Positions 12,456 through 59,236 of a DNA stretch of 64,000 nt are shown here, one piece after another. How positions within the stretch are numbered: position 1 is the stretch's first letter; each line of letters opens with the position of its first letter. The notes beneath the pieces are model-generated. The model was not told the origin of the DNA and made no database searches. It was given only the letters and a program-made list of their open reading frames with translations. Source of the DNA: a virus (lineage: Duplodnaviria > Heunggongvirae > Uroviricota > Caudoviricetes); IMG/VR virus record IMGVR_UViG_3300029702_000002; one strand, given 5' to 3'. The position numbers and the translations under genes are program-made.

Positions 12456-12498
12456 GTGCTTTCCTTTGTTTTTTAAACAAATTGTTTTCTAGTATTAG

Positions 12499-13248
12499 TT
12501 AATTAGATAGGGGATCAATAAACCGCCGTGCTTCTTCCAGTTCTTCTGGAAAGTGGGCGGAAATAAGGCGCTCTGGAACGATTTCCATTAGCCAGATAGC
12601 GGAGAAAATTGCGCGTATGCGCTTGCTGCGAGGTATGGTGCGCAAACGCTCCAGAATCCACTCAAAATAGCTTTCCTGAATCGGGTTGAACTGCATGTCT
12701 CCCATATGCTTAAAGCTAACAAGAGAGTCATCCAGACGGGTTGTTGCGCGTCTGGCTAATTTCTCTTCAAATATCTCAATCAGTTCTGGCTGCCACAAAT
12801 GCTGTGGGCGCGGCAGCTTGTCCCACAGCCGTCGTGCAGCTGCGGAAAGAACGGTGGAGATAAAGTAGTCGTATGAGCAGCAATAGCGATCCGCAAACTG
12901 GCGTGCTTTCCATAGCGACGTTTTGTTGGCAGTCGACAACTCCTGATAAGGCAGGCGTTTTAACCCGGTGGTGAACGGAGCTGTTTCAAAGTGTTCGCGA
13001 CCGTGCGTCAGCATGATATTTGAGTACTGACGTTTGTATGCCTCCGTAAAAAGACAGGTGGCCATGAGAGGATGCATGTCGCGGTAATCAAACCACTTCG
13101 TCTCGAAGAGTTCAGCCTCGTCTTTACAGCGCGACAAACCAATGTTTTCAGCGACCCACTTGTCCATAACAGCGGTATTCCACTCTGTCATGAAGTCGTA
13201 CTGGTCGTTGTCGATGGTATCGAAAAAGATTTGGCTCATGTGGCTCAC
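12499..13248 (-). CDS. Hypothetical protein (249 aa), possibly replication-associated
   Basis: ORF immediately upstream of helicase in same orientation. Confidence 0.55.
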   Translation of the reverse strand: MSHMSQIFFDTIDNDQYDFMTEWNTAVMDKWVAENIGLSRCKDEAELFETKWFDYRDMHPLMATCLFTEAYKRQYSNIMLTHGREHFETAPFTTGLKRLPYQELSTANKTSLWKARQFADRYCCSYDYFISTVLSAAARRLWDKLPRPQHLWQPELIEIFEEKLARRATTRLDDSLVSFKHMGDMQFNPIQESYFEWILERLRTIPRSKRIRAIFSAIWLMEIVPERLISAHFPEELEEARRFIDPLSN

Positions 13249-13355
13249 CTGGTAGGTAGTTACTTACTTATCACAATGAGCGGATGATAGCGACTGGTGG
13301 CAGTTTTTGGAAGTGGAAACGGAAGGGAGTTGTTCTGGTGGTGTCTTTTAAAAGA

Positions 13356-13410
13356 CCTGCTTCCGTATATATTTAATAAGTTACTTATTATTTATATATA
13401 CAGAAGCAGG
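13356..13410. repeat. 55-bp AT-rich near-palindrome, copy 1 (identical to 44652-44706)
   Basis: CCTGCTTCCGTATATATTTAATAAGTTACTTATTATTTATATATACAGAAGCAGG read in both places. Confidence 0.9.
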
Positions 13411-13521
13411 CATAACTTGTCGTCTTAGACGCCCAGAAGCTCTACACTTTGAGCCTGTTAAATTGATTAAAAACTTATGTGTAAAATAGAACGCATTAGT
13501 CAGTAGCAAAGAGATGCAATA

Positions 13522-14289
13522 ATGGACGATTTATCGGTATACGCGAGATCATTGGATAAGGCTAAATACTATGTTTACTGTCTCTATGATACAGAAGACA
13601 AGATGAAAAGACCGTTTTACATAGGAAAAGGCAAATCGACTCGTTGTCTCGATCACATCAAGTATCCCGATGACTCTCCCAAATCCATGCGGATCAAAGA
13701 ACTTTTGGCTAATAAAAAATTAGGCATAGATATACTTCGTCATGGTATGGATGAAACCACAGCCAAACTTGTTGAGGCGACATGCATCGACCTTATGGGG
13801 GTCGGAGAGCTTACGAATAAGGTACGAGGAAGTGGTTCCATGATGGGCAGAATATCACTGGACGCCTACCATCACTTAGTGCTGCAAGAGGAAACTGAAA
13901 TTGCTCCTGAGCACGCCGGTCTTGCCTTCCTGCTAAACAGCACCTACAAGTCAGGAATGTCCGCTCTGGCATTATATGAAGCTACGCGTGGCGTATGGGC
14001 AAAGGTTCCAAGAGACGAGAATCTCAAATATGCCTACGCTACATATGGTGGGCTGATAATGGAAGTTTATCAGATTGAATGCTGGGTCAAAGCCGGTTCT
14101 CAGCAGTACTTTACAAGGGATATAGCTCTTGGCCCCGACACAAAACGTTATGAATTTGTTGGCAGAATAGCCGATGAGCATATTAGAAAACTGTATGTAG
14201 GCAAATTAATCAAGAAGCCACCAAGCTACGGTAGCCCTTTTGTGAAGGTTGGGGTGGTTAGGACTGAACATAGTGTTAGCGCGGCATAA
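13522..14289 (+). CDS. GIY-YIG nuclease domain protein (free-standing, 255 aa)
   Basis: N-terminal YYVYCLYD...PFYIGKGKSTRCLDH matches GIY-YIG catalytic motif; lone plus-strand gene in minus-strand region. Confidence 0.7.
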   Translation: MDDLSVYARSLDKAKYYVYCLYDTEDKMKRPFYIGKGKSTRCLDHIKYPDDSPKSMRIKELLANKKLGIDILRHGMDETTAKLVEATCIDLMGVGELTNKVRGSGSMMGRISLDAYHHLVLQEETEIAPEHAGLAFLLNSTYKSGMSALALYEATRGVWAKVPRDENLKYAYATYGGLIMEVYQIECWVKAGSQQYFTRDIALGPDTKRYEFVGRIADEHIRKLYVGKLIKKPPSYGSPFVKVGVVRTEHSVSAA

Positions 14290-14341
14290 AGCTGACACTG
14301 TAGTTATGCATTGGCGCAATGTACGCGCCAATGCATGATTT

Positions 14342-14701
14342 TTAACCTTTCTTCATCAACTCTCGTTTGATTTCATCGGTACGCATCGTGACATCGGCAG
14401 CGGTGATCGCCTCATTCAATTTCACGATGTCCTCGATTTCCTGCGGTGACTTCTCTGCCAGATGGAAAATGGCTGCTCGAATCACGTCAGAACGAGTGAA
14501 CTTCTCGAAGCGAGGGATGAACTTCATCATCTCCAGCAGTTCGAAGTATTCGTCCTCCAGTGACATTGTGCGGCTTTTAATTTTCTCTTTGCCACGAGTC
14601 GGGCGTCCCTGTGGTCTGACTGGTTGGCGCAAAGGAGTTGTGTTCTTAGCCGGTGCATCAGGCTCTTTGCGCTTTGCTAGGTCACCCATTTTCATGGACA
14701 T
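14342..14701 (-). CDS. ParG-like small partition protein (basic N-terminal tail, putative ribbon-helix-helix C-terminus)
   Basis: 119-aa ORF translationally coupled (ATGA) to ParA-like gene. Confidence 0.5.
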   Translation of the reverse strand: MSMKMGDLAKRKEPDAPAKNTTPLRQPVRPQGRPTRGKEKIKSRTMSLEDEYFELLEMMKFIPRFEKFTRSDVIRAAIFHLAEKSPQEIEDIVKLNEAITAADVTMRTDEIKRELMKKG

Positions 14702-15369
14702 TATTCTTCTTCCTCCAGACTCAACAGATAATCTACAAATTCTTCAAACTCGGCTTCCGCCTTTTTGTCGCGCTCGCTACCGGTCATTTCAAAGATAGAA
14801 CGACCAGACTCTTCCGCATCATCATAGACGTTGCGGTTATATAGATTGACTGGCGCAGACTCGATTCCAAACGTCTCAACAATCTCTTTAGCCGCCAGAA
14901 TGCGAGACACTTGTGATGGCAAAGCCGGGCACTGGTTCATGACCGCGCGGACCTTCACTTTATCGTTTACATTGCGAACATTGTCGATAATAGGATCGAT
15001 GTCACGTAAAGATTTCAAATCACGACGCTTAGGACGCAGCGGGATAATGATAACGTCAGCCATCAGCATCGCTTGTCGCTGAATTTCGGAGTCGAAGCCA
15101 CCAGCATCTACCACTACAAACTCAGCTCTACCCTGAAGCGATTTTAGGTGCTTAATGATGTCATCCTGAACGTATGCAAAAGGAATCAGCTCCAGGTCTT
15201 CGTTCTGTCGACGGTCTTCACACCAGCTCGTTGTCGTGCGCTGAATATCTATATCGGTAATATAAACCTTCTTCTTCTTTTTGACTTTCAGGCAAACGGC
15301 AATTTGCTGGGCAACGGTGGATTTGCCAGGCCCGCCCTTTGTGCCGCCAACCACAAAGATCTTGGTCAT
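14701..15369 (-). CDS. ParA/MinD-family partition ATPase
   Basis: Deviant Walker A KIFVVGGTKGGPGKST at N-terminus, 222 aa. Confidence 0.85.
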   Translation of the reverse strand: MTKIFVVGGTKGGPGKSTVAQQIAVCLKVKKKKKVYITDIDIQRTTTSWCEDRRQNEDLELIPFAYVQDDIIKHLKSLQGRAEFVVVDAGGFDSEIQRQAMLMADVIIIPLRPKRRDLKSLRDIDPIIDNVRNVNDKVKVRAVMNQCPALPSQVSRILAAKEIVETFGIESAPVNLYNRNVYDDAEESGRSIFEMTGSERDKKAEAEFEEFVDYLLSLEEEE

Positions 15370-15687
15370 TGGAGAGTTCCCTTTGCGTATATAATTATCG
15401 TCTGAAACAACTTGTTTTCTTATATGTGATATAGCCTAAATGCCTACGGCTGCGGTGTAAAGGTTAAATGGTAGGTTGTGATTAACAATTGGCAAACATA
15501 GCTTGTATTTGTCTGTTGAAAAAAGTAACAATGACCTCTATATTACAAGTACGGTGATATGCCGTACACAATTTGATAATGCACACGTAATGGGCTATAG
15601 CCTTTTAAAGTAATTTTTGAGTCGAAAACTCAGTTTGAACAGAGGAGATTGATGGCCTTCCTACATCACGGCCATCAGGAGGAATAC

Positions 15688-15957
15688 ATGTCAGCACTAA
15701 AAAAGCAGCGCATCGATTTGAGATTAACCGATGACGATAAAAGCATCATCGAGGAAGCTGCCGCAATGTCTAACCAGAGCATTACTCAGTTTATGGTTAG
15801 CAGTGCATCTGAACGTGCCGTGAAAGTTATAGAGCAACACCGTAGACTAGTTCTGAATGAAGAATCCTGGAATCTGGTTATGGACGCTATAAGCAATCCT
15901 CCGGCACCGAACGACAAGCTGAAACGAGCTGCTGATCGTCTGAAAAGCATGGAGTAG
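15688..15957 (+). CDS. DUF1778/TacA-like antitoxin
   Basis: Small ORF immediately upstream of GNAT toxin; ATG 15688 preceded by CAGGAGGAA. Confidence 0.7.
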   Translation: MSALKKQRIDLRLTDDDKSIIEEAAAMSNQSITQFMVSSASERAVKVIEQHRRLVLNEESWNLVMDAISNPPAPNDKLKRAADRLKSME

Positions 15958-15964
15958 TTTACTC

Positions 15965-16486
15965 GTGGATAATATAAAGATAGAAATTTTCTCTGGAGAG
16001 AAAGATTATGATTTGAATGGTTTTGATTGCGGTGAAGAATCACTAAATGCCTTTTTAACCAACCACTTAAAAAGGCAGCATGAGGGAAAAATTCTTCGCG
16101 CTTATGTGCTTTGCACGAAAGAAGGCAGACCAAAAGTGTTAGGGTATTACACTTTGTCAGGTAGCTGCTTTGAAAAGGAGTCCTTACCTTCAAGAAGCCA
16201 GCAAAAGAAGGTACCTTATCGGAATGTTCCAAGTGTTACTTTGGGTAGGCTGGCTTTGGACAAGTCCCTTCAAGGTCAAGGATTTGGCTCAATGCTTGTA
16301 ACACATGCAATGCGCGTTGTGTACAATGCATCTCTTGCTGTAGGCATTCATGGACTTTTCGTTGAGGCGTTAAATGACAAAGCCAAGGCGTTTTATAAAA
16401 GTTTAGACTTTATCCAGCTGGTTGGTAACAACGAGCGTTCTTTGTTCTATCCTACAAAATCTATCGAAAAATTGTTCGAAGAATAA
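15965..16486 (+). CDS. GNAT acetyltransferase toxin (TacT/AtaT-like)
   Basis: 173-aa GNAT fold with LQGQGFGSMLV acetyl-CoA motif, 8 nt after antitoxin stop; GTG start. Confidence 0.75.
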   Translation: MDNIKIEIFSGEKDYDLNGFDCGEESLNAFLTNHLKRQHEGKILRAYVLCTKEGRPKVLGYYTLSGSCFEKESLPSRSQQKKVPYRNVPSVTLGRLALDKSLQGQGFGSMLVTHAMRVVYNASLAVGIHGLFVEALNDKAKAFYKSLDFIQLVGNNERSLFYPTKSIEKLFEE

Positions 16487-17948: not shown

Positions 17949-18138
17949 GAAAAGTCAAATCGGGATGGCGGATTTATATCACACTTCTCCTTTCAATTAT
18001 AGGTATATACTTACCTATCTATGCATATGCCGTTTAACGGCTGTTCAAATTCGTATCTAGTAACTCACTAATATATCCCTATGATTGCGGCTGTGAGATC
18101 GCATTTTAAACCTCACAGCCATATAAATAATGTCTAAA

Positions 18139-21100
18139 TCAGTTACTTGTTGCCCCAACAGTACCTGCAAATTTCAGCCATTGACCTGACGGACTTCTAT
18201 TACTACGGTAGTGATAAACGAGGATTGCGTTTGTAACTCCACCGTAGTCAGCTTTATGTGACGTTGTTAAACGAATTGTATAATCACCGTTAGGTAGATT
18301 AAAAACTTCGATTATAGATTCTGCTAATTCTACAGCACCAAATCCCGTTATATTGTTGATACTGCCAGCATTGAATCCCATAGCATCGCCAAAGCCAATC
18401 CAATAACTTTTGCTAAACGCCCCATTTGATTTTAGGTGGCTAATGAATGCGGACAAGCTCATGCCCATATCCCCACCTGAAACAGAGGAAGTTCGCACAG
18501 TCATGCTTGGAAGAGCACTGCTCTTCACATAGGAACTTAGAAGGTTTGTTACCTCTGTTTTCGTGTAAGCATTAAGGTTAGCCGCAGTCAAAGTTATATC
18601 GGCAGAGCCATCAAACGCCACACCAGCAATTTTCCTTGCTGTCTGCAATTTTGTGGCGGTTGCGGCATTACCAGTAGTGTTCTGATTACCAGTTGTATTC
18701 ACACCAGGGATTGAATCCTTAGCGGTATATACCTGCGCCCACGCTGACCATGCCGCACCTGTGTTATCTCTTCGTGAGCGAATGAAAACTGGCGCATGTG
18801 CACCGCTCGTACCACTCCAGCCAATAAGCAACTCTCCCTCACCAGCAGCACTCGCACCTTTCATGTGCAATACGTTGCCATACATGGTCGGGTAGCTATT
18901 GTTGTACGCCTCATACATTTGAATGCCAGCAGTGCCTTGAGTAGAGCCGCTTAACGCCGTAACTCGGCCACGAGATACCAATGTATTAATATTGATATCG
19001 CCTGAACCATCAAACTTAACACCATTGATGTTTCTCGCTGTTTGCAACTTCGTAGCTGTTGAAGCATTACCGTTCAAACTACCATTTACGCCACCAGTCA
19101 CATTTAGTCCATTACCAATTGATACAGCACCGCTGGTATTATTAATTGTAATAGGTCGCAAACCGTTCCATGAACCTAATGTGTCTCCTGATGCTGTTAG
19201 CATGAAATATGTGTTCGATCCATCATTACGGATAAAGAACCCAAAGCTACCGTAAGCAATGCGGAAACCATTTGCATATTTTGAAATGATCTCGCCAGAA
19301 GATGTCAAACCTCCAGATAATGTACCACCGGTAAGAGGTAATGCACCGACATCAGAGGCTGTTGGTTTGTTTTTCGTGTTATATACTCTTCGCCATCCTG
19401 GAGAATAATCTGTGCCATTAAATACATAGATAAACTCCGCATTAGTGAGAGCACCGGAAACACTTGTCGTTGTGGCCGTTGTTATGCGGATCGTATAATT
19501 ATTTGAACTACTACCGTTATTAAATACTTCTATAACAGCTCCTGCCAATGGAATAACGCCACAACCAGTTTCACTATTTGGTATGGTTGCGCTATTGGCA
19601 TAGGCCCACGCACATCGAGCAATCCATGCCTTTGTGTTAAAGGCTCCATTATTTTGCAATAACGTCACTAACTGGGCTGTTGTTATTGCTCCGCCATTAC
19701 TTCCTGTAGTTAACCAACCAGTAGGAGATGCTGGGCAACCTATATTTGCTGGTGACAAGGAAATATTTGCCGAACCGTCAAACGACACCCCATTAATAGT
19801 ACGCGCAGTCTGCAACTTCGTAGCAGTAGCCGCATTACCTGTTGTATTCTGATTACCAGTCGTATTAACACCTGGCAAATTAATATTTGCAGTACCATCA
19901 AAGCTCACGCCGCCGATAGTTCTTGCCGTCTGTAGTTTTGTAGCAGTTGCGGCATTACCAGTGGTGTTCTGATTACCCGTAGTGTTTACACCTGGAAGAT
20001 TAATATTGGCAGAACCGTCGAAACCAACTCCACCGATAGATCTTGCCGTCTGTAATTTCGTTGCTGTAGCAGCATTTCCTGAAAGACTTGAAATAAATGG
20101 ATGTGAACAGTAATAACCTCGTCCATTTTTAAAGTCCAAAATTATCTGTGCATTCGTACTTTCTGATAAAGGATCAGTTGCCCCCCACTTATAAGTGGTT
20201 TGACCAACTGCATAATCAGCCGTTGGAACAATCACATTTAATCCTTCCTCAGCAAAAATCTGGATAGGGAATGCTCTTGTCTCAACGTAAAATACACTAC
20301 ACAAATCATCATCTTTCACGCTTGCGATAATCGAGTGTATAGATCGTTCAACGGTTGAATATATTGAGAAAAAACCAACAGCATATGAACCGCGATCAGA
20401 CCAACCGCCCGGCATAACAAAACCATTAAACTCACAATTATTCATAGCGTATCCGCCAGCTGAGGAATAAGTGGTGATAACCACTCGTGAGGCTAATTCA
20501 TCTGTGCCACCACCAGTTCGGCGAAAGACTACAGGATACCACTTACCGCTTACTGCATTTGCAGGAGCAGAGAAAGTGTATTTTCGCATCCCCTTTTTCT
20601 TATCCACTTCACCTTTGCTGTAAACATTAATGTTATTCAGGAAGCGGCCCTTGTCGGGGATATCAGCACCATTCTGATCCTTCTGTAGTCTTTTTTCAGC
20701 ATTATCATATGCGGCCTTAACTGCTTTTGGCGTTGCGGCCAGCGATTCACTGGTGCTATCGACAGCACTGCTAAGTTTCACAACACCTTTAGTTGTAAGG
20801 CTTGCGTCTTCCATCGCAACTGCACCGGCAATCTCTTCAGCACGATCAGCAGCAGCTTCCGCACGGGTCGCAGCGGATTCAGCAGCAGTTTTGCTCTGAG
20901 ATGCTGCCGTCGCACTGCCTGCCGCCTCTGTTGCTTTCGTGGATGCTGTCGTGGCGCTGCCCTTCGCTGCGGACGCTTGTCTGGTCGCCTCATCTTTTGA
21001 AGCAGACGCCGATGATGCCGATGACGCTGCCGAACTGGCGGACGATGCGGCTGCCGTTTTTGAGGATTCTGCACGGGTTTCCGACGCTTTCGCGTTCGTT

Positions 21101-44651: not shown

Positions 44652-44706
44652 CCTGCTTCCGTATATATTTAATAAGTTACTTATTATTTATATATACAGA
44701 AGCAGG
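44652..44706. repeat. 55-bp AT-rich near-palindrome, copy 2 (identical to 13356-13410), about 120 bp upstream of terS
   Basis: Exact 55/55 identity to copy 1. Confidence 0.9.
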
Positions 44707-53694: not shown

Positions 53695-53898
53695 GATTAA
53701 TTCCTTATCGTAAATAACAAATTGTTTTCTTGTTGGTGTTAATTATCGTTGTACGAATAAGGCGTCAAAGTGGAAAGTTACGGTAGCCGGACGGGAACAG
53801 GTGGGTTTGTCGGTTGCCTGGAGGTAAGAGGTTGGTGTTTTTAGCCTGCGGGAAACAAGATAGTCATTTAAGGCCACCAATGCTGGTGGCCTTAGCCT

Positions 53899-54890: not shown

Positions 54891-55007
54891 GATGGTTTCC
54901 TTATTAAGTTGCTTCAGTGAAATCATTTTCACAAATCAGATAAGGCAGAAAACAAATTGTTATCGGGCATAATAAAATGGCGCGGTTTACGCGCCATTTA
55001 AAGAGGA

Positions 55008-59120: not shown

Positions 59121-59236
59121 TTAAACCACTCCAAAACAAGTTGTTTTCTTATGTGGTTTATTATCTCAATCAACAAAAGGCAGAAAACAAATTGTTTTAG
59201 GGTATGTGTAAATCAGAAGGGATTGTGTCTAAATGA

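Follow-up and report, generated by a model that had tools for sequence, protein, structure and literature searches.

A divergent PD-T4-3/CMoRE-family nuclease gene in an exchangeable cassette of an SSU5-like phage-plasmid, predicted to exclude T-even-type phages

CMoRE, the name now given to PD-T4-3, belongs to the type IV restriction endonucleases and has a single component; it binds and breaks down DNA containing 5-hydroxymethylcytosine (5hmC) or glucosyl-5hmC (5ghmC), and it protects E. coli approximately 10^5-fold against T2, T4 and T6 with no abortive infection, while T4 made with plain cytosine escapes (PMC12923530). PD-T4-3 was originally discovered in ECOR68 by functional selection, and it is one of two defence systems active in a natural E. 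coli isolate, where it restricts T-even phages (Tevenvirinae) (10.1101/2024.12.20.629700). Here we describe a divergent relative of these enzymes that is encoded at 13522..14289 (+) of a 64,000-nucleotide stretch of viral DNA, IMG/VR record IMGVR_UViG_3300029702_000002 (the window, throughout), within a cassette that lies between the replication and partition genes of an SSU5-like phage-plasmid. The pairing of a modified-base reader with a nuclease is also found in the type IV enzymes McrBC, GmrSD, PvuRts1I/AbaSI and the EVE-HNH enzyme VcaM4I.

The CMoRE/PD-T4-3 proteins of E. coli O157:H7 and APEC O1 have been crystallised (PDB 9U75, 9U8D, 9U7U and 9U7Z; Liu et al., Nat Commun 2026, PMC12923530), and the structures define the features against which the window protein can be compared. 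An insert between alpha2 and alpha3 places four consecutive acidic residues over the active site, and neutralising this loop (mutant 4A) raises activity, allows ordinary DNA to be cut and makes the protein toxic (PMC12923530). The oxygen in the main chain of Y127 contacts the 5-hydroxyl group, and the tetramer interface residues V92 and L96, together with the beta1-beta2 loop, are needed for function (PMC12923530). A second point of reference is PD-T4-3Capno, a homologue from another phylum (Capnocytophaga) recovered from metagenomic selections, which is 48% identical, a figure that does not refer to the window protein, is modification-dependent in E. coli and cuts Mu DNA as well as T4 DNA (PMC12366544).

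The window protein can be followed along nearly the whole of these enzymes. It matches the PADLOC model for PD-T4-3 (PDLC04031) with an E-value of 1.3e-23, residues 11-231 falling on profile positions 11-238 of 256 (approximately 89% coverage), and a phmmer search of the PDB returns 9U7U/9U7Z and 9U75/9U8D as its sole matches (E 2e-15), with both domains included in the alignment of residues 12-230. BLASTP identity to the crystallised proteins is 32%. The earlier note on this DNA had pointed to a clear GIY-YIG motif at the N-terminus, and it is indeed present (K-Y-Y-V-Y-C-L-Y...R-P-F-Y-I-G-K-G-K...R, that is 'YVY...YIG' followed by an arginine) in an N-terminus that reads KYYVYCLYD...RPFYIGKGKSTR. 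Residues Y17, Y19 and Y33 align with Y17, Y19 and Y31 of CMoRE, which make up the family-specific 'GIYxY-YIG' motif, the catalytic R41 and E85 align with the corresponding Arg and Glu, and H45 and N99 are likewise aligned. All seven residues are invariant in 22 diverse homologues; the tyrosines are present in 220-221 of 223 aligned family members and each of the seven in at least 218. In the dimer and tetramer interfaces (PDB chain numbering equals that of the paper plus five) V92 and R80 of CMoRE correspond to V84 and R73, both conserved, while L96 corresponds to C88, at a position that holds Cys in 126, Ala in 44, Val in 25 and Leu in 14 of the 223 sequences. The beta1-beta2 loop is present and is two residues longer than that of CMoRE.

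Beyond the nuclease core, residues from approximately 111 to 244 (13852..14253, +) align with the C-terminal, modification-sensing domain seen in 9U7U/9U75, a region for which there is no Pfam match. In the structure model this domain is predicted with a pLDDT of mostly 80-94, and the linker that precedes it (residues 93-105) falls below 50; the counterpart linker is disordered in the crystals (PMC12923530). The global TM-score is low, at 0.39 from a whole-chain comparison only, which would fit two modelled domains that are placed differently relative to each other about the low-confidence linker. Weakly but consistently, the comparisons also hint at a resemblance of the sensing domain to PUA-like (EVE/YTH/ASCH) readers of modified bases. 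A Pfam scan of the whole protein at E<=1 finds a GIY-YIG domain alone, by way of LEM-3_GIY-YIG (PF22945), and this match is marginal (30.1 bits against a cut-off of 27), covers residues 32-104 only and represents the generic catalytic core; the scan detected no NUMOD, IENR1, helix-turn-helix or zinc-finger module, and neither ankyrin repeats nor a LEM domain beside the nuclease core. An NCBIfam search of the protein gave zero matches. The NCBI name 'LEM-3-like GIY-YIG' describes the fold and not the function, and on full-length sequence and fold homology we assign the protein to the PD-T4-3/CMoRE family as a divergent member.

As with CMoRE, the window protein is the product of a single gene, is of similar size (255 aa, compared with crystal chains of 262 residues), has no methylase partner and combines an N-terminal GIY-YIG domain, a flexible linker and a C-terminal sensing domain. 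It differs in being borne on a phage-plasmid where CMoRE is chromosomal, and in being known from sequence alone. We propose that it is most probably a modification-dependent restriction nuclease, carried by the phage-plasmid to exclude T-even-type phages from the host. In this model, which draws on homology to the E. coli enzymes, the C-terminal domain would bind DNA containing 5-hydroxymethyl or glucosyl-hydroxymethyl cytosine, the expected substrate by analogy with CMoRE, and the N-terminal GIY-YIG domain (Y17/Y19/Y33, R41, E85, N99) would then cut the modified DNA. Incoming genomes of T-even type would be destroyed directly and the cell would not be killed. The unmodified chromosome and the DNA of the phage-plasmid itself, which we assume to contain no hydroxymethylated cytosine, would be spared, so that no methylase partner would be needed. 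The gene would presumably be expressed while the element is carried as a plasmid, and both host and element would benefit from the exclusion of T-even phages. Of the two possibilities offered in the earlier note, a homing endonuclease or a nuclease effector, the second is the one that this model retains, and it specifies the effector as a PD-T4-3/CMoRE-family restriction nuclease that acts against phages and is encoded by one gene.

Several observations weigh against this model, and most of them concern how far the window protein has moved from the enzymes that have been characterised. Identity to these is only 32%, and the PADLOC model score is 82 bits (78-98 for the protein and its relatives) compared with 399-410 for the crystallised enzymes. 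The alpha2-alpha3 segment, H45-I58, has 14 residues (HIKYPDDSPKSMRI) where that of CMoRE has 22 and includes DDDE/DDDD, making the loop eight residues shorter, with D50-D51 as its only acidic residues, three basic residues and a net charge of +1; the alignment shows no four-acidic autoinhibitory loop of the CMoRE kind. The 5hmC-contacting Y127 is replaced by Leu, though the contact is made by the main chain, and the residue at this position varies in the family (L, Y, Q, R, V). We know of no member of the short-loop clade with an assayed activity, and the substrate specificity is extrapolated. The short form of the loop is found in 178 of the 223 aligned relatives, and by sequence the clade of the window protein is separate from that of the characterised enzymes.

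These observations give its force to the sole rival explanation with real weight, which we nevertheless regard as rather unlikely: that the protein is a true PD-T4-3/CMoRE relative from a short-loop clade that reads some other modification, such as the N6-carbamoylmethyl-adenine of Mu type, a base derived from 5-hydroxymethyluracil (5hmU) or another hypermodified base, or that controls self-cleavage in another way. The low identity, the five-fold lower family-model score, the truncated and non-acidic autoinhibitory loop and the variability at the Y127 position all favour it, as does the plasticity of PD-T4-3Capno, whose cutting of both T4 and Mu DNA shows that specificity is not fixed within the family (PMC12366544). 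The same homologue can be read the other way, as a divergent member that keeps modification-dependent defence and so supports the transfer of function over a wide sequence distance. The entire sensing domain aligns with no large rearrangements, and the acidic loop is described as a feature of 'most' family members, not all of them (PMC12923530), so its absence is compatible with membership. Furthermore, a few short-loop relatives, 54% identical to the window protein, retain four acidic residues at the same spot, which suggests a continuum and not a new function. The short, non-acidic loop does mean that the published safety-catch of CMoRE cannot simply be assumed here. That there is a large short-loop clade which lacks the acidic lid altogether, distinguishes self by other means and maybe reads other modifications, with a sensing domain that might be a remote PUA-like reader, is a proposal that we advance tentatively, and we consider it doubtful.

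The restriction model concerns a gene that we take to be genuine and not a chance reading frame, because it has many conserved homologues and its alleles differ by mostly synonymous changes (3-4 synonymous codon changes against 1 non-synonymous, with zero stop codons). The 90% cluster containing the protein has 372 member sequences, hundreds of homologues share 50-79% identity with it, and the family as a whole comprises 1781 clusters (at 50% identity) at E<=1e-3 and 632 at E<=1e-10. The open reading frame (ORF) encodes 255 aa from an ATG start, preceded 7 nt upstream by a putative ribosome-binding site (RBS), AAGAGA, and RefSeq annotates the same ORF with identical coordinates in the near-identical plasmid NZ_CP023851, under the product name 'LEM-3-like GIY-YIG domain-containing protein'. 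The earlier note described the gene as alone on the plus strand, which holds locally: nearly all neighbours are on the minus strand, both those to the left (a 249-aa ORF and the genes for primase and a DnaB-like helicase) and those to the right (ParA and a small ParB-like gene), and the nearest other plus-strand genes, a toxin-antitoxin pair, lie 1.3 kb downstream.

The gene lies within a 931-bp accessory cassette (13411..14341, +), defined by alignment breakpoints, that comprises the nuclease gene, its own upstream region and a terminator. Homology with Cyrano and SSU5 ends exactly at the right end of a 55-bp palindrome (13410/13411) and restarts at 14342, where the ParB-like gene has its stop codon, while PhiR41_1, which carries the gene, aligns across the entire region. 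The cassette has a GC content of 43.6% (47-49.5% in the flanking genes) and the nuclease gene a third-position value (GC3) of 0.44 (0.51-0.58 in the flanking genes); it holds one credible ORF and no partner gene. The cassette-specific upstream region of 111 bp (13411..13521, +) is missing from gene-less relatives, is identical at 108 of 111 positions in a second allele and presumably contains the promoter and RBS. A scan of 13100-14500 for consensus promoters and terminators reported nothing, including no sigma-70 promoter, a result that weighs against the restriction model; TTGATT (13463-13468) with TAAAAT (13482-13487), picked out by eye, have a spacer of only 13 nt and are not claimed as a promoter. 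At the other end, between the convergent nuclease gene and partition operon, a hairpin at 14302..14340 (+) with a 16-pair stem (12 perfect), a 7-nt loop and a folding energy of -25.1 kcal/mol (z -5.6 relative to shuffled sequences) precedes a T-run and is a probable terminator, a call that rests on folding energy because the pattern scan reported nothing. The hairpin is part of the cassette, since it is found in PhiR41_1 and is absent from Cyrano and SSU5.

The slot that the cassette occupies runs from the palindrome to the stop codon that ends the partition operon, and relatives hold unrelated cassettes with the same breakpoints. In phage Cyrano and many plasmids the cargo is a DUF2971 protein (PADLOC candidate PDC-S31), and in pSCU-306-2 it consists of fragments of a KAP-family NTPase (PADLOC candidate PDC-S49), so two of the alternative cassettes match PADLOC candidate systems; SSU5 carries a pair of uncharacterised genes together with a DUF2971 gene, pWP4-S18-ESBL-07_2 and Citrobacter and Cronobacter plasmids carry pairs of uncharacterised genes, and pERB3f3 a 357-aa plus-strand gene. 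None of 60 evenly sampled flank-matching plasmids has an empty slot, the other cassettes being at least approximately 0.8 kb, although this was a sample and not an exhaustive census. Presence of the nuclease gene at this site is thus variable, where the earlier note had named conservation at this position in all relatives, with a characterised repair or regulatory role, as the finding that would speak against its proposal. The arrangement fits an exchange of cassettes by recombination in the conserved flanks, as judged from the alignments, and resembles the defence hotspots of temperate elements such as P2/P4, which also combine a fixed slot in a conserved backbone with interchangeable cassettes, several of them defence-related. 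We found no description of this palindrome-to-partition-operon slot in the literature consulted.

The borders of the slot are formed by backbone genes. On the left, a conserved 249-aa gene (12499..13248, -) adjoins the replicative helicase and is found in all SSU5-like relatives examined; on the right, the partition operon (14342..15369, -), at whose stop codon homology resumes, consists of the small ParB-like/centromere-binding gene (14342-14701, -) and the ParA ATPase gene (14701-15369, -), identified from ORFs and from the annotation of relatives. Beyond parA the window has a DUF1778 antitoxin and GNAT acetyltransferase toxin pair of the TacAT/KacAT-like kind (15649-16486, +), in a second variable slot where PhiR41_1 and SSU5 carry different genes, so that there is a cargo slot on either side of the partition operon.

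The organisation of the slot also bears on a very improbable explanation, that the gene encodes a free-standing GIY-YIG homing endonuclease, similar to I-TevI or the Seg proteins, which spreads by cutting gene-less phage-plasmid alleles. Such an enzyme would share the GIY-YIG catalytic domain, and the patchy presence, opposite orientation and GC below that of the flanks, as well as distant jumbo-phage relatives annotated 'putative homing nuclease', can be read in its favour. The phage-encoded homing endonucleases I-TevI and SegA-G, however, have C-terminal domains unlike that of the window protein, in which the Pfam scan found no sequence-specific DNA-binding module and the C-terminal half is a CMoRE sensing domain. 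Sampled relatives offer no empty site as a homing target and instead hold unrelated cassettes with identical breakpoints. Furthermore, homologues with 72-79% identity in Salmonella, Providencia, Pluralibacter and others include a solo insert between ppx and guaA in Salmonella and a solo gene near mutS in Providencia, at which no partner gene, intron or phage context was found, and such solo chromosomal loci fit a self-sufficient single-gene system. The homing half of the earlier proposal is largely refuted by these three lines, the C-terminal domain, the unrelated cassettes and the solo chromosomal genes. Hardly credible, finally, is a toxic nuclease that forms part of a module for abortive infection or addiction, or a remnant without activity: the gene does sit beside plasmid-maintenance genes and near the DUF1778/GNAT pair, and its product is without the loop whose neutralisation made CMoRE toxic, but we reject the toxin reading because the cassette has no partner ORF to serve as antitoxin or immunity protein, direct defence and not abortive infection is the mode of action of both CMoRE and the ECOR68 protein, and more than 100 complete plasmids stably carry the gene, while the intact gene, the full set of catalytic residues and the mostly synonymous allele changes argue against a remnant.

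The restriction model gains its biological setting from the element that carries the gene. Over the surrounding 3.1 kb the E. coli plasmid CP057798 is 100% identical to the window, Escherichia phages CMS-2020a and PhiR41_1 show 98.5-99.7% identity, and Salmonella phage SSU5 matches in the flanks alone, at 85% identity. The annotated relative NZ_CP023851 has tail, capsid, portal and terminase genes alongside replication and partition genes, and from these identities together with this combination of phage and plasmid genes we recognise the window as belonging to an SSU5-like phage-plasmid of E. coli. Copies of the entire 931 bp, 98-100% identical, were found in 135 plasmids of PLSDB; of 5426 complete E. 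coli genomes, 106 have such a copy, every time on plasmids, and 123 of the 737 plasmids that match the flanks have the full cassette. A 2025 preprint that screened phage-plasmids with DefenseFinder lists PD-T4-3 in SSU5-group elements of E. coli and Shigella, its supplementary table containing the name at least 44 times, and reports PrrC, PD-T7-5 and restriction-modification (RM) systems from the same group (10.1101/2025.09.12.675607).

The nuclease gene is also found on PLSDB plasmids that are not phages, 24 of them conjugative and 13 mobilisable. Some large mosaic plasmids retain it on a 1.6-kb remnant of the phage-plasmid backbone with insertion sequences around it. In one 141-kb plasmid that encodes CFA/III-type pili, NZ_CP062900.1 (L004 6734-8348, equal to window 13144-14761), a 1.6-kb piece of the backbone with the cassette, the palindrome and the ParB-like gene sits among IS3, IS30, IS2 and IS630, and such an IS-embedded backbone fragment is one route by which the nuclease gene has entered non-phage plasmids. 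More distant two-domain relatives occur in Serratia and Pectobacterium jumbo phages of approximately 255-278 kb (ON287375, MK994515/NC_048792, MF285618, OK040170, ON375847 and others), at 28-30% identity over 85-88% of the length and annotated 'GIY-YIG endonuclease' or hypothetical; these may be PD-T4-3-like enzymes used in competition between phages. Klebsiella phage N1M2 and Pseudomonas phage OBP give weaker, partial matches, with the annotation 'putative homing nuclease'.

The 55-bp imperfect palindrome that forms the left breakpoint of the slot (13356..13410, no strand assigned) belongs to the backbone and not to the cassette, being conserved in Cyrano, SSU5 and PhiR41_1, with its outer arms CCTGCTTC/GAAGCAGG invariant in all three. 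As the earlier note observed, the nuclease gene is directly beside this copy, with 111 bp between its end and the ATG. The second copy, at 44652-44706, has the same sequence. The sequence is AT-rich, and both copies are in intergenic gaps of minus-strand gene arrays, the first between the variable slot and the replication genes and the second with an 88-aa gene on one side and, on the other, the gene immediately upstream of that for the large terminase. On the minus strand copy 1 folds with -30.8 kcal/mol (z -7.9) and is followed by TCTTTT, while no T-run follows copy 2 on that strand; copy 1 is overlapped by a perfect palindrome of 14 bp, GTCTTTTAAAAGAC (13343-13356). Possible roles for the 55-bp palindrome are those of a terminator, a binding site for a protein or a boundary for recombination. 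We also considered it as a partition centromere or as a recombination site for cassettes; its copies sit at module boundaries and its fold is terminator-like, but a T-run follows copy 1 only. A separate motif containing AAACAAATTGTTTT is present at four sites in the window (12475-12507, 53715-53747, 54925-54970 and 59160-59217; repeat families D4/D5), with one site falling between the start of the helicase gene and the 249-aa ORF, and could be a shared operator or promoter element. At approximately 18015-18251 (-) the record of NZ_CP023851 labels a gene adjoining the tail-fibre genes 'phage exclusion lipoprotein Cor', which, if present in the window, would give the element a second function in superinfection exclusion.

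As the family has been structurally characterised and the 2025 preprint already lists PD-T4-3 in SSU5-group phage-plasmids (10.1101/2025.09.12.675607), what is added here are the exact boundaries of the cassette, a list of the cassettes that relatives hold instead, the assignment of the protein to a divergent clade without the long acidic lid, and the PUA-like hint. A gene that NCBI labels merely by its fold gains a specific predicted function, and a precise site at which accessory and defence cassettes are swapped is mapped beside the SSU5-like partition operon. In E. coli, approximately 1 in 50 complete genomes carries this predicted anti-T-even gene on a phage-plasmid, which is relevant both to host range in phage therapy and to the way in which phage-plasmids repay their host.
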